From: Dehalococcoidia bacterium
GTDB lineage: Bacteria > Chloroflexota > Dehalococcoidia > UBA2247 > RBG-13-53-26
NCBI GenBank assembly: GCA_041478915.1
Contig: JBGOXA010000003.1
Location: 1-19,881 of the forward strand
Direction of reading: 5' to 3'
Length of the DNA: 19,881 nt
In this document: in pieces, positions 331-19,881 of the stretch
How positions within the stretch are numbered: position 1 is the stretch's first letter
How the letters are laid out: each line of letters starts with the position of its first letter
Program-made: the position numbers and the translations under genes
The notes under the pieces: generated by a model
The model's database searches: none
What the model was told of the DNA's origin: nothing
What the model saw: the letters and a program-made list of their open reading frames with translations, nothing else

Positions 331-360
331 TTGAATTTGAGGGTCTGGCCAAGATATACT
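331..360 (+). promoter_or_regulatory. candidate sigma70-type promoter for rpiB
   Basis: TTGAAT (331-336), 18-nt spacer, TATACT (355-360). It lies about 20 nt upstream of the rpiB SD and ATG. Confidence 0.35.
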
Positions 361-379
361 AGTAGCGCAAGGGGGAACC

Positions 380-823
380 ATGAAAATCGCCCTCGGCTGT
401 GATCATCGAGGCCTGCAACTTAAGCAAATGATCATCAACCTCATCACCGAGATGAGACATACCTACAAAGACTTCGGTTGCTATTATGACACCACCCGGG
501 TTGACTATCCTGACTTCGCGCAGAAGGTGGCGGAGGAGGTGGCTAACGGAGGATTCGATTGTGGCATTCTGGTATGCGGCACTGGCATTGGCATGTCCAT
601 TGCCGCAAACAAGGTGAAAGGCATAAGGGCAGCAAAATGCGATGACCTTTTTTCAGCGCGTCGCGCCCGGCAACATATCGACGCCAATGTACTCTGTCTG
701 GGACAGGACATAGTGGGACAAGAGTTAGCCAGAGAGATCGTACAGACCTTTCTCGCCACTGAATTTGAGGGGGGAAGACACGCTCAGCGTTTGGAAAAGA
801 TAAAGATTCTGGAGAACAGGTGA
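380..823 (+). CDS. rpiB: ribose-5-phosphate isomerase B (RpiB/LacAB family sugar-phosphate isomerase)
   Basis: 147-aa ORF. The N-terminus MKIALGCDHRG and the loop GILVCGTGIGMSIAANK (active-site Cys) are the RpiB signature as I recall it. A purine-rich SD (AAGGGGGA) lies just upstream of the ATG. Confidence 0.9.
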   Translation: MKIALGCDHRGLQLKQMIINLITEMRHTYKDFGCYYDTTRVDYPDFAQKVAEEVANGGFDCGILVCGTGIGMSIAANKVKGIRAAKCDDLFSARRARQHIDANVLCLGQDIVGQELAREIVQTFLATEFEGGRHAQRLEKIKILENR

Positions 824-830
824 GGCCACC

Positions 831-2744: not shown

Positions 2745-2785
2745 GGATTCCCCGCATTTCAAGTCCACGGTCGCTGGAGAGTTAG

Positions 2786-4587: not shown

Positions 4588-4685
4588 GTTCGACAACAGT
4601 GAAGACATCGAGCGAACGGGCGGTAGGCCGATGGGGAAGGCCTTTATCCCTTTGCTGGTGACTTGTTAACAGGAAGGACGGTGCC

Positions 4686-4997
4686 TTGATGTTAAAATTA
4701 GACGAAAAGGGACTGATTCCGGCCATAATCCAGGACGCTGATTCCGGCGAGGTGCTGATGCTTGGTTACATGAACGAGGAGTCTTTGCGCAAGACCTTCG
4801 AGACACGGCAGGTATGGTTCTACAGTCGCAGCCGACAAGAGCTGTGGCATAAAGGAGCCACTTCGGGCAACTATCTCAACCTGGAGGCGGTGTGGAAGGA
4901 TTGCGATGAAGACACCCTGCTGGTTAAGGCCAGACCTGTTGGCCCCGTCTGTCACACCGGGAACAGGACCTGTTTTTTCCAGGAGCTAAAGCCTTAG
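4686..4997 (+). CDS. hisI: phosphoribosyl-AMP cyclohydrolase (monofunctional HisI)
   Basis: 103 aa with [30 protein letters not shown] and the C-terminal [10 protein letters not shown]. Start is TTG 4686 or ATG 4689, after GGAAGGA. Confidence 0.9.
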
Positions 4998-5887
4998 CCA
5001 GCGGGCAAGACGCCCTCCTCAGGCTTGTCGGCCTCAATCACCCCCTTCAGGGCAGCAATGGCGGCTTCCAGTTGGCTATTGTCTGGCTCTCGGGTAACCA
5101 TTGCCTGTAGTACCAGGCCTGGGGCCAGAAGCGCCCGTACCACGCGATTATCTGCATGCCTGGCACCAAGATGGGTGATTTCGTAGCCAATAGCGGCAAT
5201 AATTGGGATGAGCGCAATACGGGACAGCAGGCGCAGCCACATTGCCTGGTGCCCCAGGAGAGCGAAAACGATGATAGCGAGAACCAATACGGTAAATACA
5301 AAAGCGGTTCCGCAACGAGCATGAGCCGTAGAGTATCCTCTGGCTGCCGCCACCTCCAGAGGGGCCTCATGTTCATAGGCATTGACTACCTTATGCTCGG
5401 CGCCGTGGTAGGCAAAGACTCTCCTGACATCGGGTATCAGATTCATGGCCCCAAGATAAACCAGGAAAATGCCGATACGGATGACGCCCTCTACTATGTT
5501 GCTCAGTAATGCCGAGTCGAGATAGGGATCAGCCAGGTGAGCCAGAGCCACCGGAGCCAGAAAGAAAAGGGCCACTCCGAAGCCGAAAGAGACAAGGAAT
5601 AACCCCCATGATTTGATGCCTGAAATCTCCACCTTCTCCTCTTCCAGGGATATGTTGGCGGACTCGAACAGGGCCTGTGTGCCCATAACCACGGTCTTGA
5701 TCAGAATAACTATACCTCGGAGCAGAGGTATTTTCTTCACCCCTCCGGTATAGGTATCTGGCAGGGGCTTAGTGATGAGCTTCAGCTCACCATTAGGGCG
5801 GCGCACTGCCATCGCCATGTTCCTCTGCCCCAGCATCATCACCCCTTCGATGACGGCTTGCCCCCCATAGTGGAATTCCTTTGACAA
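4994..5887 (-). CDS. DUF1385 domain-containing membrane protein (YqhQ-like)
   Basis: 297 aa with [19 protein letters not shown] and several hydrophobic segments. TTG start preceded by AGGAGG. Its position just downstream of rpmE matches what I recall for this family. The stop overlaps the hisI stop convergently by 4 nt. Confidence 0.8.
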
Positions 5888-5896
5888 GCTCCCTCC

Positions 5897-5932
5897 TGAT
5901 AATAAGAAGAGCGGAATCTCTTTCCGCTCTTC
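5897..5932 (-). terminator. intrinsic-terminator-like hairpin between rpmE and the DUF1385 gene
   Basis: Perfect 11-bp stem GAAGAGCGGAA/TTCCGCTCTTC (5906-5916 / 5922-5932) with a 5-nt loop. On the minus-strand transcript it is followed by TTATTAT. It lies about 47 nt after the rpmE stop. Confidence 0.5.
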
Positions 5933-5979
5933 AACTATCCTTTTCCCTCTAAGATTTTCTTAGACTTAGAATACGCCTA

Positions 5980-6201
5980 TCATGGCAACGGCTGAGACTG
6001 CCCTTTCTCGTACCGCCTTCTAAACCGCTCCACTCTTCCCGCCGTATCAACTATCCGTTGCTCGCCAGTGAAAAAGGGGTGGCATTTACTACATACCTCT
6101 ACCCTGATCTCCTTCTTGGTGGCTCCGGTGACGAAGGAGTTACCGCAGGCGCAGGTTACCTTGGCATTCGAATAATACTTAGGATGAATCTTGTCCTTCA
6201 C
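5980..6201 (-). CDS. rpmE: 50S ribosomal protein L31 (Zn-ribbon type)
   Basis: Contains KDKIHPKYY...CACGN...[13 protein letters not shown]...GRVERF. The ORF-track start at 6264 would add 21 non-L31 residues and overlap rpmA by 53 nt. GTG at 6201 (GAGG 8 nt upstream) gives the canonical (M)KDKIHP N-terminus and 73 aa. Confidence 0.9.
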
Positions 6202-6211
6202 TTTTCCAGCC

Positions 6212-6469
6212 TCAAGACGCCGAATATACGCTGACCTTCCTTTTATTCTTGCCAGCCGGTTCAAACTTGACCATGCCGTCGATTAGAGCAAAGATGGTAT
6301 AGTCCTTGCCCAGCCCGACGTTATTACCAGGATGGATGCGGGTGCCCCTCTGACGGATCAGAATATTCCCAGCACGCACCTTCTCGCCAGCATATCGCTT
6401 CACTCCCAGTCGCTTCGACTGGCTATCCCGACCGGCGCGTATACTGCCGCCACCTTTCTTGTGTGCCAT
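6212..6469 (-). CDS. rpmA: 50S ribosomal protein L27
   Basis: 85 aa, MAHKKGGGS...[16 protein letters not shown]. There is no N-terminal propeptide. The ATG overlaps the rplU stop (TAATG). Confidence 0.95.
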
Positions 6470-6810
6470 TAGGTTTTACCTCCAGCTCGGGATGCCTCGC
6501 CCAGACTTATCTCTTTTATTGCCAGCCTGGTGTATCGCTGGCGATGCCCCGTCTTTCGACGGTACCTCACCTTAGGCTTATATTTGAATACGATTACTTT
6601 CTTGCCCTTTTCCTCTCCCAAGGCCTCAGCCACCACCTTTGCCCCTTCGATCAACGGCGTACCAACCCGCACCTTGTCCCCATCAGCGACGAGGAGCACC
6701 CTGTCCAACTCGACTTGGCCACCCTGATCCACTGGAAGGCGTTCCACTGAGATCACCTGTCCCGGGGCTACCTTATATTGCTTTCCGCCAGTTTCAATAA
6801 GCGCGTAAAT
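6469..6810 (-). CDS. rplU: 50S ribosomal protein L21, apparently initiated at ATT
   Basis: The ORF-track version (GTG 6756) lacks the conserved L21 N-terminus. The same frame continues upstream as (I)[17 protein letters not shown], the canonical [12 protein letters not shown] block. Between the in-frame TAA (6847-6849) and this block there is no ATG, GTG or TTG. ATT at 6810-6808 sits 8 nt after GGAG. Confidence 0.85.
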
Positions 6811-6843
6811 CGTTCTCTCTCCTGACTTTCGCTTCTTGAAAGA

Positions 6844-6873
6844 ATTTTACTATTCCTCCAGCTTCGCTGTCAA
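6844..6873 (-). promoter_or_regulatory. candidate promoter of the rplU-rpmA-rpmE operon
   Basis: On the minus strand: TTGACA (6873-6868), 18-nt spacer, TAAAAT (6849-6844), about 35 nt upstream of the proposed ATT start. Confidence 0.55.
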
Positions 6874-6988
6874 GCCGCGTGACTCGGCTCTATTCTGATT
6901 TGTATGGGAAAGGATAAGGTGGTAGAAGTCCAGGCAAAAGAAGAGGTTAAAGGAAAGGAGGTCTTACCACCAGTGGCTGACAGCCAAG

Positions 6989-7019
6989 AGGATAGTCCTT
7001 GACAGTGAAGGACTATCCT
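6989..7019. repeat. perfect 12-bp inverted repeat (hairpin) in ORF-free DNA
   Basis: AGGATAGTCCTT (6989-7000), loop GACAGTG, AAGGACTATCCT (7008-7019). Neither strand has a U-tract after it, so it is not a classical terminator. Confidence 0.9.
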
Positions 7020-7866
7020 GCTGGGGCTGGAAGAGTATAAGGTAAAAGTGGTAAGGGATGATGAACGAGGTATTGTAGGAATGGTAGGAGGGGTGGCTGC
7101 CTTTTTCACGGGTGTTTGGGGGTTACAGGCATGGGCAAAGCCAGCCGAGGAAGGTGCTTCATAGCTAGAGCAGGGCAAGAAGGTTTACCTCGAGGTACAC
7201 CGGAGGCGGTGGCGATGTCGGAGATGCCGCTGTTTTTCAGCGGTGGGGCAGAGCTAATACGACCCCTTACTCCAGGATTACCAGACAAACAGAGGCAGAA
7301 CCGCTGTGGCAGCTTAAGGGTCGGAGTTTTGCTCAGGTGGGGAGAGGGTTAGGGATAGGGTATACTTCCCTTGAAGGAGGGAAATAAACGAGCAGTCGCT
7401 GAGCCGCGTTGCCGATAAAGAGGAGACATACCTGGGCATTGGCGAACATGATCCTTAGCGCCTCTCCTATGGCCTAGGAAATGTGGAGGCCTACCGAAGA
7501 AAAATGCTCCTGGGGCTTGTACCATCCCGTGCCTCTTCCACATAGTTTGACATAGAGCCTTAATTCGGCAGGGATTGAGGATGTCCTTCCCTTTTGGCGG
7601 ACAATCTTGCTAGAACGCGATGCCAAAGAAAAGTGGTCAAGGGCATTACGGCCATCCCTTTGCTGACAAATCTTGGGTTTAAGCAGAAATCTAAGGTAAC
7701 GAATCGGGCACGGCATCACCACTAGGTGAAGGACGGGGAGATGTTAACCAACCGAATTTCTTGTTACCATGCGAGACGCAGCGTGGCTCCTTCGTTTACC
7801 GGTGCGCAGGTTGACGGATGGTGTGCGAGTAAGCCAAGGGCAGGCATTGCTCCAGGCCAGTAGCAA

Positions 7867-7895
7867 TTGACCTGCTCGGCAGTGAATGCTAGCAT
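7867..7895 (+). promoter_or_regulatory. candidate promoter for the crotonase-family gene
   Basis: TTGACC (7867-7872), 17-nt spacer, TAGCAT (7890-7895), with TGC directly upstream (extended -10-like). It lies 30 nt upstream of ATG 7926, which has GGAGG 6 nt upstream. Confidence 0.35.
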
Positions 7896-7925
7896 GGGCT
7901 GTATCACTACTAGAAGGAGGATGGT

Positions 7926-8753
7926 ATGGCTTATAAGAACCTGGAGTTTGAATGCCGCGACCATATTGGCTGGCTGACTTTCAACCGCCCTGACCGACTG
8001 AACGCCTTGTCCCTGGAGATGGCTGGGGAATTGCGGCATTTCTTCGCTAGCCTGGAGGAACATCTGGATGCGCGTGTGGTCATCGTCAGAGGCGCGGGAC
8101 GGGCCTTTTGTGCTGGTTTCGACGTGTCAGGCCTCTCTGGCGGGATGGCAAAGATTGACTCAGCGACGACAATGCCCACTGGAGCCGTGACTCACGGCCA
8201 CATGGTGCAGCGGCTGATGAATGATGTGGTAATCAAGATGCGTCAAGCGCCACAGCCCCTCATTGGCGCCATTCGAGGTGTGGCTGTTGGAGGTGGCTTT
8301 ACTCTGGCTATGGGCTGCGATGTGCGCCTGGCTGGTGAAACGGCTCGCTTTAATGCTGCCAACATTCGCATCGGGTACACTGGAGCCGACATGGGGTCCT
8401 CCTATTTTCTACCCCGGCTCATTGGCCTATCACGGGCCGCTGAGTACATGTACACTGGTCGCATCTTGGATGCCGCTACCGCCGAGCGCATTGGCTTCGT
8501 ATCTCGGGTAGTGCCTGACGATGAGCTGGATCAGGCTGCCATGGCACTCGCTGAGGAGATGCTTCACGCAACGCCTCTAGCACTGAGGCTGACAAAAGAG
8601 TTACTCAATATCAATGTTGATGCCCCCAGCCTCATGGCAGCTACCCAAATGGAAGCTGGCAGCCAGCTTCTCTGCGGTATGAGTGAAGATGCCCAAGAGG
8701 CAATTAAGGCAGCCTACTTCGAAAAGCGCCCGCCGTTGTATCAGGATCGCTAG
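7926..8753 (+). CDS. enoyl-CoA hydratase/isomerase (crotonase) superfamily protein, probably not a hydratase
   Basis: 275 aa with WLTFNRPDRLNALS, FCAGFD and GAIRGVAVGGGFTLAMGCDVRLA (oxyanion-hole region). The canonical catalytic Glu positions are Thr and Asn (see findings). Confidence 0.85.
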   Translation: MAYKNLEFECRDHIGWLTFNRPDRLNALSLEMAGELRHFFASLEEHLDARVVIVRGAGRAFCAGFDVSGLSGGMAKIDSATTMPTGAVTHGHMVQRLMNDVVIKMRQAPQPLIGAIRGVAVGGGFTLAMGCDVRLAGETARFNAANIRIGYTGADMGSSYFLPRLIGLSRAAEYMYTGRILDAATAERIGFVSRVVPDDELDQAAMALAEEMLHATPLALRLTKELLNINVDAPSLMAATQMEAGSQLLCGMSEDAQEAIKAAYFEKRPPLYQDR

Positions 8754-8839
8754 GTTCAACAGTGTGCTCTAGCTCATCTTGCCATTTGTGGCTTGACGTG
8801 GCAGGCTTATCTATCGGCAGCGCTCTTTGGCTTTGGAGC

Positions 8840-9877
8840 CTATTCCCCACTCGGGGGGACGTCTGTCAGCTTGTACATGCTTAGGCCGCCCCTCTCTTCC
8901 ATGACCACCTGGCCGCGGCTCTCCAGAAATTGAAGATGGGCCAGGGTTTCCCGCACAGCCAGGAGGTGATTAGTGGCGTCCATCTCTTCCCAAGGGCCCA
9001 CGTCCCAGTGCACCTTACTCGCCAGGTCCCAGGGGGTTGAGGGACGGTCGGACAATCCTGCCAGCACCTCTGCGAGGCGCTGCCGGTGATGCTCCAGGAT
9101 CTCATCTACTCTCCGCGCCAGATGACTAAAAGGCCTCTCATGGGCCGGCAGGACCAGTTCCGCGTCCATGGATCGAACATTTCTCAAAGCCTCTAGAAAC
9201 TGACCAAGCTGGTTATAGCTGGTGAGGTGGCTGGGGGAGACGTGAGGGGTGATCTCAGGGAGAACATGGTCACCAGAAAAGAGCACCTTGCTCTTTTCAT
9301 CATAGAGGCACATGTGTCCAGGGCTATGGCCCGGGGTGAGGATAGCTCGCAGGTGCCCATCCCCTCCCAGTGCGTTCTCCTCACCCTGAAAGACTATATC
9401 GGGCTCTAGCCCCCTGGGGAACAGCGTTCTGCCGAAGCTGGCCATTTGGTAGAATCTATCCAGCTCCAACGGTGGCACGCCCAGGCTCCCTGACCATTGC
9501 ACCAGCCCATCCAGGGTCCATGTTTCGGTTGGGCTGACAGCATGCTGCAGGATGTCCCAATCCTGCTGATGGATTATCACTTTAGCCCCAGAAGCCGCCT
9601 GGATACGCAACGCCAGCCCGCTGTGGTCGGGGTGGTAATGGGTGATAAACAGCCATTTAATGTCCTTAAAGGGGATGCCCAGCGCCTGTAGCTGTCGGCG
9701 CAAAGATTCAAAACAGCTATCGTCGTTAAAGCCGCAGTCCACCATCAACCAACCATCCCTTTCTTCTATCAGATAGCACAGCGTACCAAAAGACTCGTCC
9801 TGCGCCGCAAGCTGAGGGAGACATGGGACATCCACCATGTAGATCCCCGGGAGTATCTGACGAGGTTTTTCTTTCAT
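8840..9877 (-). CDS. MBL-fold metallo-hydrolase with C-terminal helical/winged-helix-like extension
   Basis: 345 aa with the metal motif ITHYHPDHSG, later TPGHSPGH and GDHV. The substrate cannot be inferred. Confidence 0.85.
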   Translation of the reverse strand: MKEKPRQILPGIYMVDVPCLPQLAAQDESFGTLCYLIEERDGWLMVDCGFNDDSCFESLRRQLQALGIPFKDIKWLFITHYHPDHSGLALRIQAASGAKVIIHQQDWDILQHAVSPTETWTLDGLVQWSGSLGVPPLELDRFYQMASFGRTLFPRGLEPDIVFQGEENALGGDGHLRAILTPGHSPGHMCLYDEKSKVLFSGDHVLPEITPHVSPSHLTSYNQLGQFLEALRNVRSMDAELVLPAHERPFSHLARRVDEILEHHRQRLAEVLAGLSDRPSTPWDLASKVHWDVGPWEEMDATNHLLAVRETLAHLQFLESRGQVVMEERGGLSMYKLTDVPPSGE

Positions 9878-10023
9878 TCACTCAGGCCACAAAGTTAGAA
9901 TCTTCCTGGTGTATGAAAAGTTTACCACATTCTCACTAGTGGCGCAGCAGCCGGATAAGAGTAGGGTTGAAAATAGGGTAAGGCGCGTCACCTGCACGGG
10001 CAAGAAGCCTTTTCGGTTCTGCG

Positions 10024-10185
10024 TCAATAACTGTGATAGTGCCTCATGCAGCTTTGGGCATATAGCCCCCTTCCGTTCGTCAGGAGGATTCTCTGTCTGA
10101 AGTTGGCCACATTGCGATAGCCATAGGCCACCCTCTTTATCACCTTGATACGGTTGTTCTTGACCTCCAAGAAGCCATTGAGGTA
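10024..10185 (-). pseudogene. C-terminal fragment of an ISL3-family transposase
   Basis: Reads NGFLEVKNNRIKVIKRVAYGYRNVANFRQRILL followed by a stop. This matches the conserved C-terminal block of ISL3 transposases (xNGxxEGxNNKIKxxKRxAYGxRNxxNFxxRIL) as I recall it. About 350 N-terminal residues are absent. Confidence 0.6.
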
Positions 10186-10195
10186 TAGGACGCAA

Positions 10196-10438
10196 TTGAC
10201 CGTCACCGATAGGGATGATGGTCTTGATGGTGACCTGTCACTCATCGTAGATTACCTCATCCACTAACAGGTGAAGTAGTTCTCGGCGCTGCTGGAAGTC
10301 CATGACCTCCAAGCCCTGGGTGAGCCTCTTGGCCAACGCTTGCACCTGCCCTTGGTAGCTCAGGGCCTTGTGCAAGTGGGCTAGGATTTTGTAGCTGATC
10401 TTCTCTCTTGATCCTAGCCTGGGCGATGGCCTTGACCT
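10196..10438 (-). pseudogene. degenerate 3' fragment of a large serine-recombinase-like gene
   Basis: The frame reads ...LAKRLTQGLEVMDFQQRRELLHLLVDEVIYDE*QVTIKTIIPIGDGQL, with an internal TGA at 10240-10238. This resembles the C-terminal tail of large serine recombinases (LDFexrRxLLrlLVdxVxv...). No catalytic N-terminal domain is present, and it abuts the ISL3 fragment directly. Confidence 0.4.
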
Positions 10439-10653
10439 TCAAAGGATGGTGACCTCCTCCACCAGCTCATCACCGTCCAGTTCCGCGTGGCCTCCAGCAG
10501 CGCTCTGAACCCAACTCCCCATCCCAGATATGTAGCGCTGTGCACCTGACGACGCCTCAGAAATTGCTGTGACGCTCTGTTTACCCACCAAACACTCAGG
10601 AGACGATATCACTCAAACTGATTGCCTCTAGACGCACCAGCCAGTCTGCAAGC

Positions 10654-11619
10654 TCATGGTTTTACAAGGACGCCCACCTCTTTTCGTTCCAGCAGGGCTC
10701 TCATGGCTTCGTTGATCTTCTCTAGAGGTACGATGGACGAGTATAGAGCATCCAAATTGACACGCCCCGATTCAACCAGTGTGACGCCAAGCAGAAATAG
10801 GTTATCCATGCCTTGTACGCCTTGGAGGTCCAGGCTCTTGAGCATGACAGTATTGAAGTCGATCCTAGGAGTGTGTTCGTAAGCCGATACAATCACACCT
10901 TGGCCATGGAAGGGAAGCATTTCGACCAGTTCATGAAGGGCTTCGTGGTTTCCGCTGCATTCGAACACGATGTCCGGACCCCGCCCACTTGTCAGTTCCC
11001 TGACCTGTTCCACAGGATCCTCCTTGTTTACATTGATCACCTCGTCCGCGCCCAGTTCCTTGGCAATCGCAAGCCTATGTTCGGACATCTCTGTAATAAT
11101 AGTTTTGCTGACACCAGCTACGCGCACGCATTGGAGGACTAGTAGCCCAATAGTCCCGGCCCCCTGCACTACCACAACATCCCCAAGCCGTACTCGCGAC
11201 TTTTTGACGGCATTGAGCGCCACGTTCAAAGGTTCCAGGTAGGCAGCTTGTTCATACGTTATCGAATTCGGCAATGGCTGGGCCCACTGGTGCAACACAT
11301 ATTCCGCATATCCCTCTCCCGGCCCCTGCAACGCGACTCGATCCCCCACCTTGCAACATGTGACACCTTCACCCGTCTCTACTACATCCCCAGAGATTTG
11401 ATGGCCAATGACCGCATGGATAGGAATCCCCATGACCTTGCTGAAACTGTCAGCCAGAGGATCCGCTCCGGGGACCTTGTTGTATTTGTATATGTGCACG
11501 TCGGATCCACAGATCGAACAGTAGCGAACCTTGACCAGGATTAGTCCAGGCCCAACTTCAGGCTTGGGCATGTCCCGGATCACGAAGTTGTACGCGCCTT
11601 CGAAAACTGCCTTTTTCAT
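10654..11619 (-). CDS. zinc-type medium-chain dehydrogenase/reductase (sorbitol/threonine-dehydrogenase-like), short form, copy A
   Basis: 321 aa with CSICGSDVH (catalytic Zn Cys), GHQ in place of GHE, LEPLNVALNAV, and the Rossmann motif VVVQGAGTIGL with TE at the end of beta-2. The structural-zinc Cys lobe is absent. It is a paralog of 14684-15649. Confidence 0.85.
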   Translation of the reverse strand: MKKAVFEGAYNFVIRDMPKPEVGPGLILVKVRYCSICGSDVHIYKYNKVPGADPLADSFSKVMGIPIHAVIGHQISGDVVETGEGVTCCKVGDRVALQGPGEGYAEYVLHQWAQPLPNSITYEQAAYLEPLNVALNAVKKSRVRLGDVVVVQGAGTIGLLVLQCVRVAGVSKTIITEMSEHRLAIAKELGADEVINVNKEDPVEQVRELTSGRGPDIVFECSGNHEALHELVEMLPFHGQGVIVSAYEHTPRIDFNTVMLKSLDLQGVQGMDNLFLLGVTLVESGRVNLDALYSSIVPLEKINEAMRALLERKEVGVLVKP

Positions 11620-11833
11620 GGTTTTCCCCCTGTATCAGGGCAGGTGAGGCAAAGAGCTACGTTGAGCCTCTGACCCTTTCCTGCTCCGTCTTCTGTGGTC
11701 TGGCTAGGCCTATCTTGAGGCACCTCTTCATGCCCCCTCCATCGATTGATTTACAGAACGCCCTGTCGACTCCTTATCGCCGCGTTTGGCCCATCGTGAG
11801 TCTTTCTGTACTCCTGTGTGCTCGTCCCTCGAA

Positions 11834-14077
11834 TCAGCCGCAGCCAATGATCTTCTCCACCTCTACCAAAGCCGTGTTGTAGGCAAATGCTCCTCCTGGC
11901 GAAGGTTCATCGTTCGTTAAAACGTTGGCACATCCTCCCCTGTCTACCCCGTTGCCATCGGGGTCATACCATGCGCCTTGCGGAACATCAATCACGCCTG
12001 GCATGATCCTCTCGGTTACCCTGGCACGAATGACAACCTCACCCCTGTCGTTGAAGACTCTGACTGTCTCGCCGTCCTGGATATCCCTATTGCGGGCATC
12101 TTCCGGGTTGATCAAGGCAGCCTGCTTCTGAAGCTCCCTCAGCCAGGGCACAGTCTCAAACTGGGCGTTGGTGCGTCTCTTGAAATGGGTGCTTATGAGT
12201 TGCAGCGGGTATTTCTTGACAAGAGGATCATTTCGGCTTTCCCAGGTCTCAATATACTTCGGGATCGGTAGCGCGAGTGGATCACCAATATCCGCAATTC
12301 GCTGCGAATAAATCTCAATCTTTCCCGATGGGGTGGGGAATGGGTTGTTGGCCGGATCCTCTATTTGGCTCTTGAAGGCTACGTGCGGCTCCGGGAGGTT
12401 CAACCAGTGGACTGCTTTCTGCGTCCACACGTCATAGTCAGGGATAGCATTCAGTTGGGCCCTATATCTGAGTAGCTCCTCCTCGCTTTTGTCTAGGAAG
12501 CCAGTGATGCCCATCCTTTCTGCAAGCTCAGCCGTAATCTGCAAGGGCGACTTTGATTCACCCAGTGGTTCGATCACCTTGTTCTGCTTGCCTATGAACG
12601 CCAACCCCTGCCCATAGGCCATATCCTCCCTCTCCATGAACGTATTCACCGGCAGCACGATATCGGCGTACTTCGCCGTCGCCGTCATCACCTGCTCCTC
12701 AACAACAATGAACTCCAATGATTGCGACTGCAAGGCCCTGACGATCTTGTTGACATTGGGAAAGGAATTAACGTAATTAGCCTTTTTCACGTAGAGCAGC
12801 TTGTAGTCGGTGAAATACCCTCCAGCTCGCCCGGTAAGAATGGCATCGGCGATCTTGGCCACATGTACTCTGGGTTCCCTTCCCAGAGCGAATTCGACAA
12901 GCACTCCTTCTGGCCTACCGGGAAGACCCTGCTCCAATGGATTCGGCATAAAGTCCCACAATTCGAGACTGGATAACACGGGAGGCAAAAGGTACGGGAA
13001 TCCTGAGAGTGGCCCGCCCTGAAACATGGCTGCTGCGTTCCCCCCACGAATGCCAACGTTACCAGTCATGGCCGCAAGCGTAATGGCCGCACGATGGTAT
13101 TGCTCCCCATAGGCAGTGCGACCGGGAGCGTTGCTGGCTAACAGCGCCGCTGGTTTAACTGTGGCGTACTTCCTGGCCAGAGTCTCGATAGTGGCTGAAG
13201 GCACCCCTGTGATCTCTTCTGCCCACGCTGGCGTCTTGGGCACCCCGTCTTCCGCGCCCGTGACGTAGTCTTTGTATCGGTCAAAACCGACGGTGTACGT
13301 CTCCAGGAACTTCTCGTCGTGGAGACGCTCCTTGATCATCACATACGCCATTGCAATCAGCATCGCGGCATCGGTACCGGGCCTAATCGGTATCCATTCA
13401 TCCGCTAGGGCGGCTGCCGTGTCTGTAAATCTTGGGTCGACCGCCACGGTTCTGGCTCCCGCTTCCCTGGCCCGGGCCAGGTACCAACAGGTGTTGGTGC
13501 CGCAGATAGTGTCCGCCGGATTGGTGCCCCATAGAATGATGAGCCTGGAGTTGAGCAGATCATCCGAAGTGTTGGAAGTATCGAGAGTTCCATAGGTGAA
13601 TATGGCAGAATAAAGGGCCGCGTTGAAGGATGCTGCACCCCAGTACATGGTAAAGCCACCCGCCATGTTCAGTAGCTTTTCCAGCGCTCCCCAACCCGTT
13701 AAGGAAGCAGTATCACCAGGCATTTGCACCATAAGGATAGACGCTGGACCATAAGTGTCCCTGACTCTTTTTAGCTCCCCGGCTACTGTGTCCAGGGCTT
13801 CATCCCATGAGATCCGCTCAAATCTACCTTCCCCCCTGGCACCCACCCGCTTTAGCGGGTACAGAATGCGTCCGGGGTCGTAAATCCTCTGCCGATAGGC
13901 CCGCCCTCGAAGGCAACCTCTCAACTGAGGCTCTTTCCCATCGTCGGTCTCTATTCTGGTGATAACGCCATCCTTCACGTGAACCTTCAGCAGACACACC
14001 CCCCCGCAATGGCTGGAACAGGTGGTCGGTATCACCTGTTCCTTTTCAACCCGTGTATCGCTCCTGTCGTCGGTCAT
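11834..14077 (-). CDS. DmsA-type molybdopterin (bis-MGD) oxidoreductase catalytic subunit, no Tat signal
   Basis: 747 aa. Has the N-terminal Cys group CSSHCGGVC...GCLRG (FS0-type 4Fe-4S), LYPLKRVGARGEGRFERISWDEA, ILWGTNPA, VDPRFTDTA, and a C-terminal barrel domain (VRVFNDRGEVVIRARVTERIMPGVI). AAGGAGG lies 7 nt upstream of the ATG. The N-terminus MTDDRSDTRVEKEQ has no RRxF motif. Confidence 0.9.
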   Translation of the reverse strand: MTDDRSDTRVEKEQVIPTTCSSHCGGVCLLKVHVKDGVITRIETDDGKEPQLRGCLRGRAYRQRIYDPGRILYPLKRVGARGEGRFERISWDEALDTVAGELKRVRDTYGPASILMVQMPGDTASLTGWGALEKLLNMAGGFTMYWGAASFNAALYSAIFTYGTLDTSNTSDDLLNSRLIILWGTNPADTICGTNTCWYLARAREAGARTVAVDPRFTDTAAALADEWIPIRPGTDAAMLIAMAYVMIKERLHDEKFLETYTVGFDRYKDYVTGAEDGVPKTPAWAEEITGVPSATIETLARKYATVKPAALLASNAPGRTAYGEQYHRAAITLAAMTGNVGIRGGNAAAMFQGGPLSGFPYLLPPVLSSLELWDFMPNPLEQGLPGRPEGVLVEFALGREPRVHVAKIADAILTGRAGGYFTDYKLLYVKKANYVNSFPNVNKIVRALQSQSLEFIVVEEQVMTATAKYADIVLPVNTFMEREDMAYGQGLAFIGKQNKVIEPLGESKSPLQITAELAERMGITGFLDKSEEELLRYRAQLNAIPDYDVWTQKAVHWLNLPEPHVAFKSQIEDPANNPFPTPSGKIEIYSQRIADIGDPLALPIPKYIETWESRNDPLVKKYPLQLISTHFKRRTNAQFETVPWLRELQKQAALINPEDARNRDIQDGETVRVFNDRGEVVIRARVTERIMPGVIDVPQGAWYDPDGNGVDRGGCANVLTNDEPSPGGAFAYNTALVEVEKIIGCG

Positions 14078-14154
14078 CTTCTCGCCTCCTTTGAATTCTG
14101 AGGTTGTTCGGGAACGAGGCCCGCCCAGCTAGCCCCCGATCATTCTCCAATTTA

Positions 14155-14619
14155 TCATACGCCTCGAAACTCGTATAGCTCCAGCGTAACCCCATTCGTC
14201 TTTTCGCCGACCACGTAGGCGGCGCGCACCCCGAATTCTGGCAAATGTCCCTGAAACACAGGCTCGATGCCTACCCTAGCTAGGCGCGCCAGCACGCTAT
14301 CAAGATCGTCTACGCCCCGACAGCACAGATGCTGGATTCCCTCCCCCTTTTCCCTGAGAAACACGGAGTGGGGGGTTTCACCCTCCAAGACCTCGATCAA
14401 TTCGATCTGAACAGGATCGTACGAACTGAGGGCAACTCTTATTCGAGCATTGCATGCCCGGCCGCGATAGATGAAGTCTTTCAGGTCGAGTTCAAAGAAA
14501 CCAAAGGGTCCCCAGCCCAAGGTATTGGTGTAGTAGTCTACCGCTGCGTCCAGATCCTTCACTACGATGCCTATCTGCTCTATCGGGGGCAATTTCAGTT
14601 TGGATGTCTCCTCTCCCAT
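14155..14619 (-). CDS. VOC (glyoxalase/bleomycin-resistance/dioxygenase) family protein, methylmalonyl-CoA-epimerase-like size
   Basis: 154 aa with IEQIGIVVKDLDAAVDYY (beta-1/helix), IELIE, IQHLC and VTLELYE, the paired beta-alpha-beta-beta-beta modules. GAAGGAGG lies 8 nt upstream of the ATG. Confidence 0.8.
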   Translation of the reverse strand: MGEETSKLKLPPIEQIGIVVKDLDAAVDYYTNTLGWGPFGFFELDLKDFIYRGRACNARIRVALSSYDPVQIELIEVLEGETPHSVFLREKGEGIQHLCCRGVDDLDSVLARLARVGIEPVFQGHLPEFGVRAAYVVGEKTNGVTLELYEFRGV

Positions 14620-14683
14620 TGGATCAGCACCTCCTTCTATGTAATGGTCCTCGTTGAAAGACCGGAGACCGGCATTACCGTTG

Positions 14684-15649
14684 TTATGGTTCTACGATGA
14701 CTCCAACCTCTTTTCCTTCCAATAAAGCCTTCATGGCTTCGTTGATCTTCTCCAAAGGTACGATTGATGAGTACAGTGGATCCATCTTGATACGCCCGGA
14801 TTGGATCAAGGCGATGCCGATCGGCATGAGGTTGTCCGCGCCAAGTACTCCCTGGATATCCAAGCTCTTGATCATGACAGTATTGTAGTCGATGTTAGCA
14901 AGATGCTCGTAACTTGCCACAATCATCCCCTGGCCGTGGAAGGGAAGCATCTCGACCATTTTCTCAAGGGCTTCGTGATTCCCAGTGCATTCAAACACGA
15001 TACTCGGACCCAAGCCACCTGTCAGCTCTGTGACCCGTTCTACAGGATCCACTTCCCTTACATTAATCACCTCGTCCGCGCCCAATTCTCTGGCCATCTT
15101 GAGCCTGGGTTCAGACATCTCGGTGACAATAACCTTTGCGGCGCCGGCGGCTCGCGCGCATTGGAGAACTGACAGGCCGATAGTTCCAGCTCCCTGTACA
15201 ACAACAATATCCCCAAGTCCTAGCCGCGATTTCTTAACCGCATTGAGCGCCACGTTCAAGGGTTCTAAATAGGCCGCTTGTTCATACGTTATCGAATCCG
15301 GCACGGGCTGGGCCAAGTGGGTTACGACATATTCCGCATATCCCTCCCCCGGACCCTGCAATGCCACTCGATCCCCCACCTTACAGTACGTCACACCTTC
15401 GCCCGTCTCTACTACATCCCCAGAGATTTGATGCCCAATGACCGAATGAATGGGTATCCCGAAGGCTTTGCGGAAACTATCAGCCAAGGGATCCACTCCC
15501 ACTACCTTGTCGTACTTATACAGGTGGACGTCCGATCCGCAGATTGAACAGTAGCGGACCTTAACTAGCGTCTGTCCAGGGCCAACTTCAGGTTTGGGCA
15601 CATCCTTGATCACAAAATTATACGCGCCTTCAAAAACTGCCCTTTTCAT
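14684..15649 (-). CDS. zinc-type medium-chain dehydrogenase/reductase, short form, copy B
   Basis: 321 aa, aligning without gaps to 10654-11619 (249/321 identical by manual count). It has the same CSICGSDVH, GHQ, LEPLNVALNAV and GAGTIGL motifs. AAGGAGGGAG lies upstream of the ATG. Confidence 0.85.
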   Translation of the reverse strand: MKRAVFEGAYNFVIKDVPKPEVGPGQTLVKVRYCSICGSDVHLYKYDKVVGVDPLADSFRKAFGIPIHSVIGHQISGDVVETGEGVTYCKVGDRVALQGPGEGYAEYVVTHLAQPVPDSITYEQAAYLEPLNVALNAVKKSRLGLGDIVVVQGAGTIGLSVLQCARAAGAAKVIVTEMSEPRLKMARELGADEVINVREVDPVERVTELTGGLGPSIVFECTGNHEALEKMVEMLPFHGQGMIVASYEHLANIDYNTVMIKSLDIQGVLGADNLMPIGIALIQSGRIKMDPLYSSIVPLEKINEAMKALLEGKEVGVIVEP

Positions 15650-15805
15650 TTCTCCCTCCTTTCTGGGTTAGGCTTTTTGGTCTAGCGCTCTTGACCCGGA
15701 TTTCTCACCAGTCTGATTGGTTCACTTGCAAACTGTGAAGTCGCACCCCGGCAACAGATCCCATCATCACGGGATCCCAAGCCGCGACCTGCCCACGCAG
15801 GCTGT

Positions 15806-16588
15806 CTAGAAAGGGGCGAGTCCGCCATCGACTGATAATTGCACTCCCGTTATGTAGCCGGCCTGGTCAGAAGCCAGAAAGAGCACCGCCGATGCTATTT
15901 CCTGTGGCTGGCCGAACCGGGCGATGGGTTGAGTGGCTACCAACATATCCAGTACATCCTGTGTAAACATTGGGACATGAACGCCACTCTAGGTCCAACC
16001 TGGCGCCATACAGTTGACCGTTATCCCATGCGGTCCCAGTTCCCCGGCAAGACTCCTGGAGAAATGCGCCACGCCTGCCTTGGAGCTTGCATAGATTGAC
16101 AAAGTGGGCGACGGCATTTTGGCAGCATCGGTAGTGATATTGATTATCCTCCCGTAATGCTGGCTTACCATGTGAGGCACAACTGCCCGACACCAGTTCA
16201 GGGTACCTTTGAAGTTACTGTCTATCTGTAAATCACATTCCTCTGGCGTCATGTCAAGAGAAGCCGTAAGTGCGACGTTTGTGACAGCAGCGTTGTTGAC
16301 CAGCATGTCTGTCCGCCCAAACTCCTCGATGGCCTTTCTTGCCATTTCTTCCACATCGGCCCGCACACTGACATCGGTCTTGACAACAAGGACCCGCCGG
16401 CCCAGGGCACGGATCTCATCGACTGTAGCGCGCAGGGTACCCGGCAAACGAAACCGATCCACCGGTTCTTCCACCGAGCGGGCCGCTAGGACGAGGTCAG
16501 CCCCCTCCCGCGCCAAGGCAATGGCTATTGCCTTCCCAATTCCACGGCTGCTGCCAGTTACTATGGCTACTTTGTCCTGGAATCTCAT
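15806..16588 (-). pseudogene. classical SDR (FabG-like) oxidoreductase interrupted by an in-frame TAG
   Basis: TGSSRGIGKA (TGxxxGxG), NNAAV and YASSKAG (YxxxK) lie in the 199-aa ORF 15989-16588. After the TAG at 15991-15989 the same frame continues SGVHVPMF...[36 protein letters not shown] to 15806, the normal SDR C-terminus. Confidence 0.7.
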
Positions 16589-16906
16589 CTATAGAACCTC
16601 CCTGGTGTTGAGAACTCTAGCTAACCGATCTTCTACCTGACGGTCATTGTCCAAACCTGTCATTTCTGTCTGCCATGTCACTGCCCACCCTCACCCGATC
16701 AACTTGAGCCAGGTCATACTTCTTAGCCGAGGCAAGAGAGAAGCCCTCCCACTGGCCCGGTCATAAGCTTGAGCAAGGGCAAATCCGCTCAATACAGAAG
16801 CGCCCCCGGGTTCCCGTTCCTTCGGACAGGCATGGTTGTTGCTGACCAGTTTTGTCAACTAAGCGTTGCCAGGTGGCCTCCTCTCGTGGCTCGGATGGTG
16901 ACGGGT

Positions 16907-17817
16907 TCACAGGTCTCTAGCGATCGTCTTAGGAATAAGCTCCGTCAACTCATCAAGCGTCCAGGGCCCATACTTTTTGTGATCCTTGTAGATTCCCTTT
17001 AGCTCATAGGGCTCTGCATGCAGTGCCACAACCCCGCCGCCGCAGCGAAGCACCCGACCGTTTATGTTGGCTGCCTCGTCCGTTGCCAGGTAGACCACGA
17101 GCGCTGAAAAAACTCAGGTCCGGCCAAATCCAGGAATTCTTCCAATTGCGCTTTGGTCATCGTGCCAGCCTCGTACCATTCCCGAAGCGAAGCCTTGGTA
17201 TATTCGGAGTCCGTCAGCCTGGTTGCTGCTTCGGGGGCAATGGCATTACAGGTAACGCCATACCTCCTCATCTCCCTGGAGAGATATCTGGTTAAGCTTA
17301 CAATTCCTCCCTTTGCCGCCGAATAAGCAGCCGAGCCCAATGTGATCCCATACCAGGCATTAGAGGCGGTGTTTATTATCCGGCCACTCCTCTGGTCTCT
17401 CATCAGGACGGAGGCATGCCGGCAGCAATTGAAGGTTCCCTTGAGATGGACATCAATCATCGCATCCCAATCCCCTTCAGTTATGTCGAATATCACCCCC
17501 GGCCTCACGATACCGGCGCAGTTCACCAGAATATCCAGCCGACCAAAGTTGTCAACGCAGCTCTTGATAAGCCCCTCAGCTTTGCCGAAGTCAGCCACCG
17601 AATCATAATTGGCAACCGCTTGCCCCCCTCGGTTCTTGATTTCCCGGACCACCTCGTCGGCCGGCCCTAAATCAGTCCCACTTCCCTCCCAGGCTACCCC
17701 AGGGTCATTGACCACCACACTGGCGCCTTCGGCAGCCAGGTCCAAAGCTATGGCTCGACCGATTCCCCGGCCAGCCCCAGTCACTACCGCACCTTTGCCA
17801 TTCAGTCTTTGACTCAT
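16907..17817 (-). pseudogene. MFE-2/HSD17B4-like SDR (3-hydroxyacyl-CoA-dehydrogenase type) split by a frameshift
   Basis: The N-terminal part (17062-17817) has TGAGRGIGRA, VVVND, GGQAVANYDSV, NCAGI and YSAAKGG. The C-terminal part continues in another frame (16907-17098): (SAL)VVYLATDEAANINGRVL.... The frames meet at the A6 run 17107-17112. Confidence 0.7.
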
Positions 17818-18158
17818 TTCACGATGCCTCCTCAGCTTGGACTAGTGCTTAGTTGCGGAAATACCTTTACAAATATCTTGAGTGCGTTCAGCTTTGAGCC
17901 AATGTCGTAACATTTGCGCAATTAGGCACTAGAGTATCTCGATCCTGGCGCTTCTCTGAACAACGGGGTGCCATCCCCCACACTTCTACAGTCCCAAGAT
18001 GCGAGTAACTCGATCAAGTCGGGTCAGGGGTATATTTCCCTCCCCACACATGAAGGATGAGTATGAGGCCACCTTCTCGTCGGGCTCGAGCCCAAACGGG
18101 GGTGCCCCTAAGACCAAGAACCTGCTGCTGTTCCGCTCCGAAAACGAGCTTCTGCTCT

Positions 18159-19388
18159 TTACTCCGGTATCAAAGGCAGCCAATCAGCAACCCTCACCAG
18201 GTCCTTGTTTTCGGCGCTCCATTTGTAAGCCGCGAGGTCACTGAACAGATACCGCTTAGTCTCATTGTAACCCCATTCCCGATAACCTTCGTAGTGGGCC
18301 GTAAACTTTGCCGCGGCATTATAGAAGGCTTGGCCATCAAAGTTCTCAGCTCCCACCTCTGCTATTGCCTGACGCAAAATGTCAAAGAAGCAGTACATCC
18401 CATGGAATGAACCTACATAACCTATGCCCTGATAGATCAGATCATCAGCTTCCCCAGGATGGTACTTGTGCACCAACTCTTCGGCCAACTCGACTATGGG
18501 AGTGGTTTCATTCCACCATCGCGTCGGAAACAGAGTCAACGTTCCGTCCATCCCTTTCCAGCCAACCGCGTCCAGGTATAGACCCTTGCCAGAAGCGAAA
18601 GAGTCAGTAGACACCCACGTCGTCTTGTATCCATGGCCCAGAAAGCCCTCTAGAAAGGAAACCGATCCTGCATTGACATCAGTAGTGAATATGTAGTCGC
18701 ACCCTTTCAGCTTGTCTATCGCCCCGAAACCATAGCTCATTGTGCCCGCAGGCATTATTGAATCACCAACATACTCAAAGAGATCCGGGTGAGCTTGGCA
18801 GAAGTCCTTGATTGCTCGCACAGAATCAAGATTGTTCGAAACTGCCCAACCAAAAGCACCAATCTTGGGGACCATGGTATCATAATAGGGCCACTGTTCG
18901 CTGAGCCATTTCATGATGGTCGTTGCCACATCATAGAAAGTGGGACCAACACAAAACACCCATCCCGGAGGCTCTAGCATGCTCGCAGTAGAGGACCAAG
19001 TGAAAATCGGCACCTTGTCCCTTTCCGCAAAGGGTTTCAGGATATCTGGGGTGGTGTGCTGAGGAGTGATGATTAATTCTGCTCCGCGTCCCCTGCACCA
19101 GTCATAGCCAGGTACATCCCTGGCTGGGTCAAACCTGGCATCAAAAGTGACAAGTCTTATCTGCACCCGAGGGATCGGGTCATCCTCATTAATGTGCCTG
19201 ACGAAATCGTTCATGGCTAAGTTGAGGGTGCGCAGTGCCATTGCCCCAGGTCCCGTGTAATCACTCATGAAACCAAGCGTAATAACTACCGGTCCTCCTT
19301 GGCGTTTGTGGCCGCAAGACAAGCAAAGCACGGCTATTAGGGTCAGGACCAGAAACAAAGCTATCGCCCTTCTATACTTACTCTTCAT
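18159..19388 (-). CDS. ABC-transporter substrate-binding protein (type-I periplasmic binding fold, Leu/Ile/Val-binding-like), probable lipoprotein
   Basis: 409 aa. N-terminal signal MKSKYRRAIALFLVLTLIAVLCLSCG with a Cys-containing lipobox-like end. The body resembles the Peripla_BP_6 family (ITLGFMSDYTGPGA..., FDARFDP...). GAGGAGG SD. No permease or ATPase gene is in the window. Confidence 0.8.
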   Translation of the reverse strand: MKSKYRRAIALFLVLTLIAVLCLSCGHKRQGGPVVITLGFMSDYTGPGAMALRTLNLAMNDFVRHINEDDPIPRVQIRLVTFDARFDPARDVPGYDWCRGRGAELIITPQHTTPDILKPFAERDKVPIFTWSSTASMLEPPGWVFCVGPTFYDVATTIMKWLSEQWPYYDTMVPKIGAFGWAVSNNLDSVRAIKDFCQAHPDLFEYVGDSIMPAGTMSYGFGAIDKLKGCDYIFTTDVNAGSVSFLEGFLGHGYKTTWVSTDSFASGKGLYLDAVGWKGMDGTLTLFPTRWWNETTPIVELAEELVHKYHPGEADDLIYQGIGYVGSFHGMYCFFDILRQAIAEVGAENFDGQAFYNAAAKFTAHYEGYREWGYNETKRYLFSDLAAYKWSAENKDLVRVADWLPLIPE

Positions 19389-19391
19389 TTC

Positions 19392-19881
19392 TTACCTCCT
19401 CACATGAGAATATGCCACACGTTTCAATAGTGACCTTTTCATGTCCTTTATGGATACAGCAACATGATTCAGACGCGCGTCAAAAGCCCCCTTTCTGGTT
19501 GTTATCCCAGTACAAGCTTCGTTCGAACCGAAGGTGGCCCTAGAAGAACTGCAGTCGAGATCCTCCTCCGAACGGGGCAACTCAGTAAACTGTAGTGTCA
19601 CTCCGTCAGGATCAAAATAGAGGACCTGTCTCGACTCTATATACCACTTGGAACTTGAAGGTCCAAATAGGAGTTCTAGGCTTGAAGCCCTTTTCCTCCA
19701 AGTCCTTTACCACCTTGTCCAAATCGGGCACCATCCAGTCCACCTCCTTGAGGCCTGTGGTCCTATACGCCGGATGCTCCGGAGGGCTCTCGGTGACTCG
19801 GGGATGTCGCCACTCCTGCAGTTCCAGCGAGCTCTGACCATCACTTAGAATCACCAACCTGAAGGCAGCACCTCTGTCAAA
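19392..19881 (-). pseudogene. VOC-family gene (5' end outside the window) with a frameshift, fused to a short N-terminal fragment of a second VOC module
   Basis: Frame A is open from the window edge: FDRGAAFRLVILSDGQSSLELQEW...DLDKVVKDLEEKGFKP..., stopping at 19612. The expected VOC C-terminus (Q)VLYFDPDGVTLQFTE lies in the +1 frame. That frame runs on through ARLNHVAVSIKDMKRSL (a VOC beta-1 start) and stops 3 nt before the SBP ATG. Confidence 0.55.

Follow-up and report, generated by a model that had tools for sequence, protein, structure and literature searches.

What might a molybdenum (Mo) enzyme of the DmsA kind be doing in a Dehalococcoidia bacterium that encodes neither an export leader nor a membrane anchor beside it? 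The gene lies in contig JBGOXA010000003.1, of which positions 1-19,881 of the forward strand, 19,881 nt in all, were analyzed and are here called the window. A sequence-only reading of the window had singled out a module at 10654-15649 on the minus strand, in which the Mo enzyme is accompanied by a VOC-fold protein and two medium-chain dehydrogenases (MDR-A and MDR-B), and had suggested a cytoplasmic hydratase, hydroxylase or transhydroxylase whose product would be handled by the adjacent dehydrogenases. That interpretation is partly supported: the enzyme is predicted to be cytoplasmic and non-canonical, and its neighborhood is conserved and lies in a variable region, but the lack of a partner holds only for the window, the particular chemistry suggested is at best a candidate, and the upstream short-chain dehydrogenases (SDRs) cannot be counted on for the role given to them. 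Our favored reading, held at about even confidence, is that the Mo enzyme would be a soluble, non-respiratory oxygen-atom-transfer enzyme for an organic substrate, belonging to a distinct clade without twin-arginine translocation (Tat) leaders, coupled to the VOC protein and provided only optionally with a ferredoxin.

A six-frame list of open reading frames (ORFs) returned the four genes of the module where they had been reported, and the gaps between them agree with those claimed: 64 nt between MDR-B and the VOC gene, 77 nt between the VOC gene and the Mo enzyme, and 214 nt between the Mo enzyme and MDR-A.

11834-14077, minus strand: Mo enzyme, 747 amino acids (aa), predicted catalytic subunit of a Tat-less, DmsA-like enzyme with a molybdenum or tungsten (Mo/W) bis-pyranopterin guanine dinucleotide (bisPGD) cofactor (Pfam, NCBIfam, 1eu1 alignment, tree)
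14085-14091, minus strand: Shine-Dalgarno sequence AAGGAGG, 7 nt 5' of the Mo enzyme ATG (sequence read)
14155-14619, minus strand: VOC-fold protein, 154 aa, Glyoxalase_4 (Pfam, alignment A2, adjacency in clade loci)
14684-15649, minus strand: MDR-B, 321 aa, NAD(P)-dependent medium-chain dehydrogenase of the polyol/threonine/butanediol dehydrogenase type (Pfam, NCBIfam)
10654-11619, minus strand: MDR-A, paralogue of MDR-B (Pfam, NCBIfam)

The Mo enzyme and its clade

The Mo enzyme is an intact DmsA-like Mo/W-bisPGD catalytic subunit. It exhibits the Pfam domains Molybdop_Fe4S4 (PF04879, E 6e-11), Molybdopterin and Molydop_binding, and the cysteine group C20-x3-C24-x3-C28...C55 and the block LYPLKRVGARGEGRFERISWDEA, both picked out earlier, are present. 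The four cysteines of the FS0 iron-sulfur cluster are encoded at 14020-13913 and are invariant in the clade (alignment A1). Equally invariant in that alignment is S150, encoded at 13630-13628, the putative serine ligand of the metal; what had been aligned by eye is confirmed, S150 pairing with Ser147 of the R. sphaeroides dimethyl sulfoxide (DMSO) reductase (1eu1) and with the DYS-S serine of DmsA. The top NCBIfam match is DmsA/YnfE (TIGR02166), at 670.3 bits against a cut-off of 777.7, and the match begins at profile position 39, past the leader; the BisC family (TIGR00509) comes second, at 417 bits against a cut-off of 1017.55, neither cut-off being reached. Escherichia albertii DmsA shares 38% identity from its residue 56 on, that is, over its whole mature length.

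Where would such a protein reside? The AAGGAGG at 14091-14085 is followed 7 nt further on by the ATG, and between the in-frame TAG at 14131-14129 and this ATG there is no ATG, GTG or TTG, which leaves no room for a Tat leader, as the sequence-only reading had argued. The N-terminus is the same in L001, an independent Joint Genome Institute metagenome contig (sample 3300035688) in which the enzyme has 95% aa identity. Nor does the window encode a ferredoxin or a membrane anchor, again in agreement with what had been read: the CxxCxxCxxxC motif is absent from all six frames, and phmmer and tblastn searches with DmsB, DmsC and the clade's own ferredoxin gave no match. Because no start codon is available 5' of the ATG and no twin-arginine motif occurs across the clade, the Mo enzyme is predicted to be cytoplasmic, a trait of the clade rather than an oddity.

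The clade itself was assembled by scanning species-representative genomes with peptide patterns, which gave about 40 loci of the Mo enzyme's kind. Control loci came from the same scan and comprise DmsAB(C) of Acidobacteriota, Aminicenantes, Bacteroidales and Moorella, and enterobacterial DmsABC. In a neighbor-joining tree with BisC and TorA of E. coli as the outgroup, 95/100 bootstraps recover the clade as monophyletic, and it lies outside enterobacterial DmsA/YnfE, which form a clade of their own (100/100), and outside the other DmsAB(C)-type groups sampled. The window's enzyme groups with those of L001 and L087 (100/100) within a nine-locus subclade (100/100). Phylogeny, which had been named among the checks, thus does not place it inside canonical respiratory DmsA, and the view that it is cytoplasmic and distinct from that group stands: the clade is separate, and Tat motifs and DmsC anchors are absent from all of its members. 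The twin-arginine motif is absent from all clade members even when the longest possible ORFs are read, whereas enterobacterial DmsA in the same set show SRRxFLK-type motifs.

Clade members come from Dehalococcoidia, other Chloroflexota and Desulfobacterota metagenome-assembled genomes (MAGs). The 120 closest database proteins, from MAGs of Chloroflexi, Dehalococcoidia and Deltaproteobacteria/Thermodesulfobacteriota, are 60-95% identical to the Mo enzyme, with a median length of 733 aa, a median leader of 17 aa and an RR motif in none. The clade is characterized by a length of about 715-760 aa, a short hydrophilic N-terminus before CX3CX3C, the absence of an anchor, a G-x-x-S-F ligand motif and a K-G-K-A-G-G-Y motif, all of which the Mo enzyme shares; clade-specific positions include G419, G420, Y421 and D424. 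An exact match to the Mo enzyme was absent from the assembly collection. Searched in a library of representatives at 50% identity, the clade is reduced to a handful of entries (P0002 at 76%, then ≤52%), which as an estimate of size suggests only moderate diversity, and a tblastn search of plasmids returned only canonical DmsA at ≤41% identity, with no clade members and no PadB-named proteins.

Two further observations concern the edges of the clade. A second Tat-less, DmsA-like group lies outside it (L048, L049, L056, L059, L062, L064, L065, L067), with N-termini of the form …CPAHNCGGRC…; some of its genes precede unusually long DmsB-like ORFs (about 390-480 aa), and others in the same tree group carry Tat motifs. 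One clade member (L029, 654-2945), next to which lie a ferredoxin gene and one for an enoyl-CoA hydratase, is located on contig JBHLNL010000041.1, which is binned to a Promethearchaeota (Asgard archaeon) MAG and could reflect horizontal transfer or a binning error.

Partners of the clade

Which genes accompany the catalytic gene outside the window? To survey the partners, seed proteins were run in phmmer against every ORF of the loci, 45 non-redundant clade loci among them; the gene calls are simple ORF calls, and the context counts carry no formal null model. The most distinctive partner of the clade is the VOC protein. In the window's subclade and its neighbors, the VOC gene lies immediately upstream of the catalytic gene, overlapping it by 4 nt in L002 and L007 and separated from it by 5-77 nt elsewhere. 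The reciprocal search, with a VOC profile against metagenome contigs, gave 59 informative loci; in 27 of them the VOC gene is followed directly, on the same strand, by a Mo-enzyme ORF, and in 4 more such an ORF is nearby. Conservation of the neighborhood, on which the sequence-only reading depended, therefore holds for the VOC-Mo pair. The larger MDR-VOC-Mo arrangement recurs in L001, L087, L105 and L147 and is looser, the MDRs of L105 and L147 being only distantly related to those of the window.

The same VOC subfamily is also found directly upstream of acetylene-hydratase-like Mo/W enzymes in six loci (L103, L108, L110, L111, L114, L135), and the downstream enzyme of L111 matches acetylene hydratase (2e7z) with an E of 1.3e-98. 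In L036 (4691-6910) and L045 (4407-6641), an acetylene-hydratase-like gene, a 640-aa OYE/Pyr_redox_2 flavoprotein, a ferredoxin, a VOC protein and a DmsA-like gene form one same-strand array. VOC-fold enzymes, such as glyoxalase I and methylmalonyl-CoA epimerase, carry out metal-assisted proton transfers via enolate-type intermediates. The window's VOC protein is weakly similar to methylmalonyl-CoA epimerase and glyoxalases, and its conserved Q15, E73, H97 and E147 (alignment A2) are likely to form a metal site. In the literature we found no described pairing of a VOC protein with a DMSO-reductase-family enzyme and no characterized member of the clade.

A ferredoxin accompanies only part of the clade. 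A DmsB-like ferredoxin of about 190 aa with four cysteine groups adjoins the catalytic gene in 23 of the 45 loci and is absent, with adequate flanking sequence, from about 16. It is of the DmsB type, closer to PsrB and DmsB than to the transhydroxylase small subunit, and scores 181 bits where the DmsB cut-off is 214. None of the 45 loci yielded a DmsC; by the same phmmer method, the canonical DmsAB(C) control loci showed DmsB wherever downstream sequence was available and DmsC in most cases. Because no clade member has DmsC, the Mo enzyme cannot work as a respiratory reductase of the DmsABC type. In L087, the closest non-trivial relative (76% identity), the order is MDR (partial), OYE, VOC, Mo enzyme and ferredoxin, and MDR-A of the window sits where L087 has its ferredoxin. 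Four contigs (L028, L122, L139, L152) have two tandem catalytic genes and a single ferredoxin gene each, and in L028 and L122 each catalytic gene has its own upstream VOC gene. Given a ferredoxin in 23/45 loci, and one for two catalytic genes in these four contigs, it is plausible that a ferredoxin is encoded elsewhere in the organism. The description of the Mo enzyme as partner-less is accordingly true of the window but not shown for the organism, since L087 and half of the clade have the partner and in four contigs one ferredoxin gene accompanies two catalytic genes.

The dehydrogenases vary more. MDR-A and MDR-B had been called paralogues, and they are 77.6% identical in aa; the best PDB match of MDR-B is (R,R)-butanediol dehydrogenase (3.9e-46), and an MDR-B-like gene also lies upstream in L087. 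In both 321-aa proteins the four-cysteine structural-zinc lobe is apparently absent, as judged by eye, and both read GHQ where zinc-dependent relatives usually have GHE; they may depend on metal in an atypical manner. In L004, L089 and L022, all three without ferredoxin, SDR genes lie directly against the Mo gene, and in one reading the MDR paralogues of the window have taken the place of the SDR pair found in that position in L004 and L089. OYE-type flavoproteins occur in 10/45 clade loci, and acyl-CoA dehydrogenase, CoA-transferase III, enoyl-CoA hydratase and Peripla_BP_6 binding proteins recur near the clade. For the L004-type cluster (SDR, BKACE, 3-hydroxyacyl-CoA dehydrogenase) a phloroglucinol pathway was considered and rejected: no 'cyclase'-family cyclohydrolase was seen, and the NCBIfam matches were generic and below cut-offs. 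The published phloroglucinol pathway requires a cyclohydrolase of that family (PMC10470551).

Possible reactions of the Mo enzyme

What might the substrate and the reaction be? In our favored reading the enzyme would carry out a two-electron oxygen-atom transfer on an imported organic compound, most likely a water-dependent hydroxylation at carbon or the reverse, in which an oxygen function is removed reductively. Electrons would pass between FS0 and a ferredoxin, either a subunit whose gene lies elsewhere or a soluble one, the VOC protein could isomerize or epimerize the substrate or product through an enolate-type step, and MDR-A and MDR-B would interconvert the resulting secondary alcohol and ketone. 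Support for an organic substrate comes from the adjoining SDRs, the MDR-VOC-Mo arrangement, the OYE flavoproteins and the recurrent genes of CoA metabolism. The evidence would fit carbon hydroxylation, reductive dehydroxylation and the reduction of an organic S- or N-oxide alike.

Several observations weigh against this reading. The characterized enzymes nearest in sequence reduce S-/N-oxides or selenate and are not hydroxylases, and the tree was built without PadB, transhydroxylase (AthL), acetylene hydratase (Ahy) or the catechol dehydroxylases. The gene context of the clade is heterogeneous; some of its operons, such as that of L002, consist only of ferredoxin, VOC protein and Mo enzyme and include no dehydrogenase. 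Some co-occurrence is to be expected by chance, these genomes being rich in CoA-related and dehydrogenase genes. The window is without both the ferredoxin and the OYE gene of L087, and shows local decay in the form of two disrupted SDR genes and an ISL3 fragment. An AlphaFold2 model of the Mo enzyme from a 17-sequence alignment (mean pLDDT 59, pTM 0.52, with FS0 and ligand regions below 50) is too poor for inspection of the active site.

A serious rival, if a rather improbable one, is that the Mo enzyme is a cytoplasmic S-/N-oxide reductase (for DMSO, trimethylamine N-oxide (TMAO), methionine sulfoxide or similar), fed by a ferredoxin or DmsB-like protein and serving as a non-respiratory electron sink or in BisC-like repair or scavenging, with the dehydrogenases loosely or not at all related to it. 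Sequence similarity points there, DmsA/YnfE and BisC being the top families and the best structures a DMSO reductase (299 bits, E 6.5e-88) and a TMAO reductase (292 bits, E 6.6e-86). With the DmsA/YnfE enzymes of E. coli and relatives, which reduce DMSO and selenate, the Mo enzyme shares the three-domain architecture, the CX3CX3C...C spacing of FS0 and the serine ligand, and the ferredoxin of the clade, where present, is of the DmsB type. With BisC/TorZ-type enzymes it would have in common that it is soluble, serine-ligated and non-respiratory, BisC being cytoplasmic as well. Minimal ferredoxin-VOC-Mo operons free of catabolic genes (as in L002) would suit a simple reductase, and homologues from Dehalococcoidia single cells were noted earlier and provisionally called DMSO/TMAO reductases, without experiments (PMC4959651).

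However, the Mo enzyme misses both curated cut-offs, TIGR02166 included, and belongs to a separate clade at 38% identity to DmsA. Unlike DmsA/YnfE, it has no Tat leader, its clade has no DmsC, and it is coupled to a VOC protein and often to dehydrogenases; unlike BisC-type enzymes, it has an Fe-S domain at its N-terminus, and BisC and TorA of E. coli are not part of the clade. Tyr114 and Trp116 of the R. sphaeroides DMSO reductase are replaced by Met and Gly (PDB alignment). The linked SDR, MDR, OYE and VOC genes would be superfluous for a simple sink, and the VOC partner is common to acetylene-hydratase-like enzymes.

That last point leads to a further alternative, which we consider unlikely: a non-redox hydratase or hydroxyl-transferase resembling acetylene hydratase or transhydroxylase, in which the Fe-S cluster works without net electron transfer and the VOC protein tautomerizes an enol product. 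An FS0-bearing catalytic gene without ferredoxin, as in the window and in the roughly 16 clade loci with adequate flanks, has the same make-up as acetylene hydratase (Pelobacter acetylenicus, 2e7z), a cytoplasmic FS0 enzyme of a single subunit that needs no partner. Acetylene-hydratase-like genes share the VOC subfamily and sometimes the operon, both enzyme types occurring together in L036 and L045, and the adjacent dehydrogenases could act on a hydration product. Pyrogallol-phloroglucinol transhydroxylase (Pelobacter acidigallici, 4v4c) and resorcinol hydroxylase are likewise cytoplasmic and serine-ligated, pair a catalytic with a ferredoxin-like subunit, have no membrane anchor and act on organic substrates.

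The similarity scores and the residues argue otherwise. Among PDB matches, transhydroxylase (4v4c_A, 205 bits) and acetylene hydratase (190.8 bits) fall far below the 299 bits of DMSO reductase. The metal ligand is Ser, whereas acetylene hydratase uses Cys. Read directly from the sequence, C24, the second FS0 cysteine, is followed by Gly and not by the catalytic Asp of acetylene hydratase, and the ligand region reads Ala149-Ser150, with Ala in place of the Asp174 that precedes the serine ligand of transhydroxylase, an enzyme from which the FS0 domain further sets the Mo enzyme apart. Half of the clade also keeps a four-cluster ferredoxin.

Is there precedent for our favored reading, in which a cytoplasmic family member would transfer oxygen to or from an organic compound? 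Acetylene hydratase and transhydroxylase are cytoplasmic members of the family that act on organic compounds. PadBCD, the phenylacetyl-CoA:acceptor oxidoreductase of Thauera and Aromatoleum, is a DmsABC-like Mo-Fe-S enzyme that hydroxylates or oxidizes the activated methylene of a cytoplasmic CoA thioester. Likened to it by description only, the clade recalls PadBCD in the CoA-metabolizing genes that recur nearby and differs in having no membrane subunit such as PadD. Another branch of the family, nearer acetylene hydratase, contains the catechol dehydroxylases of Gordonibacter and Eggerthella. Compared again by description only, they offer a precedent for cytoplasmic enzymes acting on organics, although the proteins associated with them are MFS transporters and LuxR regulators rather than VOC or MDR proteins. 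Those of Gordonibacter have no signal peptides, are taken as cytoplasmic and have imported organic substrates (PMC12771579). The fold and cofactor set of the Mo enzyme are familiar, and its cellular setting and partner set are new.

Clade genes are routinely labeled 'anaerobic DMSO reductase subunit A' in metagenomes and have been used to infer DMSO/TMAO respiration in subsurface Dehalococcoidia (PMC4959651). Because genes with no Tat leader, no anchor and a VOC partner cannot support respiration of the DmsABC type, such inferences should be revisited. If the clade transforms organics in the cytoplasm, it would represent a new branch of oxygen-independent Mo/W chemistry and help in understanding how recalcitrant organic matter is attacked by bacteria in sediments. 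A bolder idea, tentative and on balance doubtful, is that the VOC protein is an obligate partner, as a subunit or as a substrate or product isomerase, of an unrecognized class of soluble cytoplasmic Mo/W-bisPGD enzymes that would span the DmsA-like and acetylene-hydratase-like branches and serve the oxygen-independent hydroxylation, hydration or dehydroxylation of organics in Dehalococcoidia and Desulfobacterota. Both groups are reported to be widespread in anoxic sediments. Were this idea correct, what is annotated as 'DMSO respiration' would instead be a new enzymatic route in subsurface carbon turnover.

Decay, selection and genome setting

How well preserved is the module? It is bordered by the following features.

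15806-16588, minus strand: SDR1, short-chain dehydrogenase with an in-frame TAG at 15991-15989; 260 aa if read through (Pfam)
16907-17817, minus strand: SDR2, short-chain dehydrogenase with a frameshift at a T6 run (Pfam)
18159-19388, minus strand: Peripla_BP_6 solute-binding protein (Pfam)
10024-10245, minus strand: ISL3-family transposase, C-terminal fragment (Pfam PF01610, profile positions 208-240 of 240, E 1.6e-9)

The two SDR genes noted upstream are indeed there, but both are disrupted, and they cannot be relied on as handlers of the product. At its TAG, SDR1 reads …APGWT*SGVHVP…, and the same TAG is found in L001 (positions 6-8). Recoding of this codon was considered and rejected, TAG being the normal stop of hisI, the enoyl-CoA hydratase (ECH) gene and MBL in the window; because it ends these genes, the TAG of SDR1 is a true nonsense codon. 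SDR1 is likely to be a pseudogene whose nonsense mutation is fixed in the population, not a sequencing error. SDR2 is frameshifted at TTTTTT near 17113, its last 68 codons (17113-16907, …VVYLATDEAANINGRVL…) lying in another frame, and could be either a pseudogene or the product of a homopolymer sequencing error. On the other side, the ISL3 fragment marks the downstream edge of the module; of the transposase and recombinase debris described there, it is the only part confirmed, the recombinase-like piece having found no support.

The Mo gene itself is under purifying selection and is maintained despite the decay of the SDRs. L001 matches the layout of the window (SDR1 end, MDR-B, VOC, Mo enzyme, 214-nt spacer, MDR-A start), with 99.5% nt identity in MDR-B, and the Mo genes differ by 5% in nucleotides with a dN/dS of 0.16 and all clade-invariant residues kept. 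When window 11588-15996 is aligned with L001 1-4409, the divergence is mosaic. The stretch that begins at the SDR1 end and takes in most of VOC is 99-100% identical; from about 14350 on, over the Mo gene and the spacer of 214 nt, the value declines first to about 94% and then to 85%, before it recovers to almost 100% at about 11700 and stays there into MDR-A. Such a pattern suggests that a recombination tract spans the Mo gene. At the start of MDR-A, one nucleotide of an A-run is deleted in L001.

Could the module then be a decaying remnant, no longer functional after it lost its ferredoxin and OYE partner through rearrangement in a variable region? The SDR1 TAG shared with L001, the frameshifted SDR2, the ISL3 fragment directly downstream, the missing OYE and ferredoxin genes of L087 and the mosaic divergence from L001 would all fit. 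Because of the selection signal, however, a dead remnant is quite improbable: the Mo gene is full length with its clade-invariant residues in place, MDR-B, VOC and MDR-A are intact, the same layout recurs in a second contig whose Mo gene has diverged, and ferredoxin-less loci recur in several sub-lineages. Hardly credible, and already contradicted, is a canonical respiratory DmsA whose DmsB, DmsC and Tat leader are missing only through assembly or annotation, a view that high overall similarity and database names such as 'anaerobic dimethyl sulfoxide reductase subunit A' would favor but that is at odds with the TAG closing the upstream frame with no alternative start, the identical N-terminal layout of L001, the 95/100 separation of the clade, and the absence throughout it of Tat motifs and DmsC, both of which the same method detected in canonical groups.

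By its Dxs, the window belongs with uncultured Chloroflexota, the named matches being a Chloroflexi MAG (77% identity) and a Dehalococcoidia MAG (68%). The variable setting of the module is borne out by synteny. Two related contigs keep the order rpiB-dxs-polyprenyl synthase-hisA-hisI-DUF1385-L31-L27-L21 and diverge after L21 (rplU); because synteny breaks there, the module falls in a variable region. The solute-binding protein upstream of the SDR genes has an N-terminal hydrophobic segment followed by Cys, and a sequence search of the PDB gave it no relative. In L004 and L089, genes for related binding proteins are situated upstream of the clade's Mo gene, and in L100 one is close to a VOC gene. 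A promoter and terminator scan of 9800-19881 gave counts equal to those of shuffled controls and is uninformative on co-transcription, and Rfam and tRNA scans of the window returned no matches. Between rplU and the ECH gene, positions 6757-7925 (about 1.17 kb) contain no convincing ORF and no Rfam or tRNA match, and only the first 120 nt or so resemble the related contigs. The ECH-family gene that follows (7926-8753, plus strand) lies on the strand opposite to the module and beyond the ISL3 fragment. It has a 245-bit relative in L017 (2-772), 25 nt upstream of a clade Mo gene, and may once have been part of the module.

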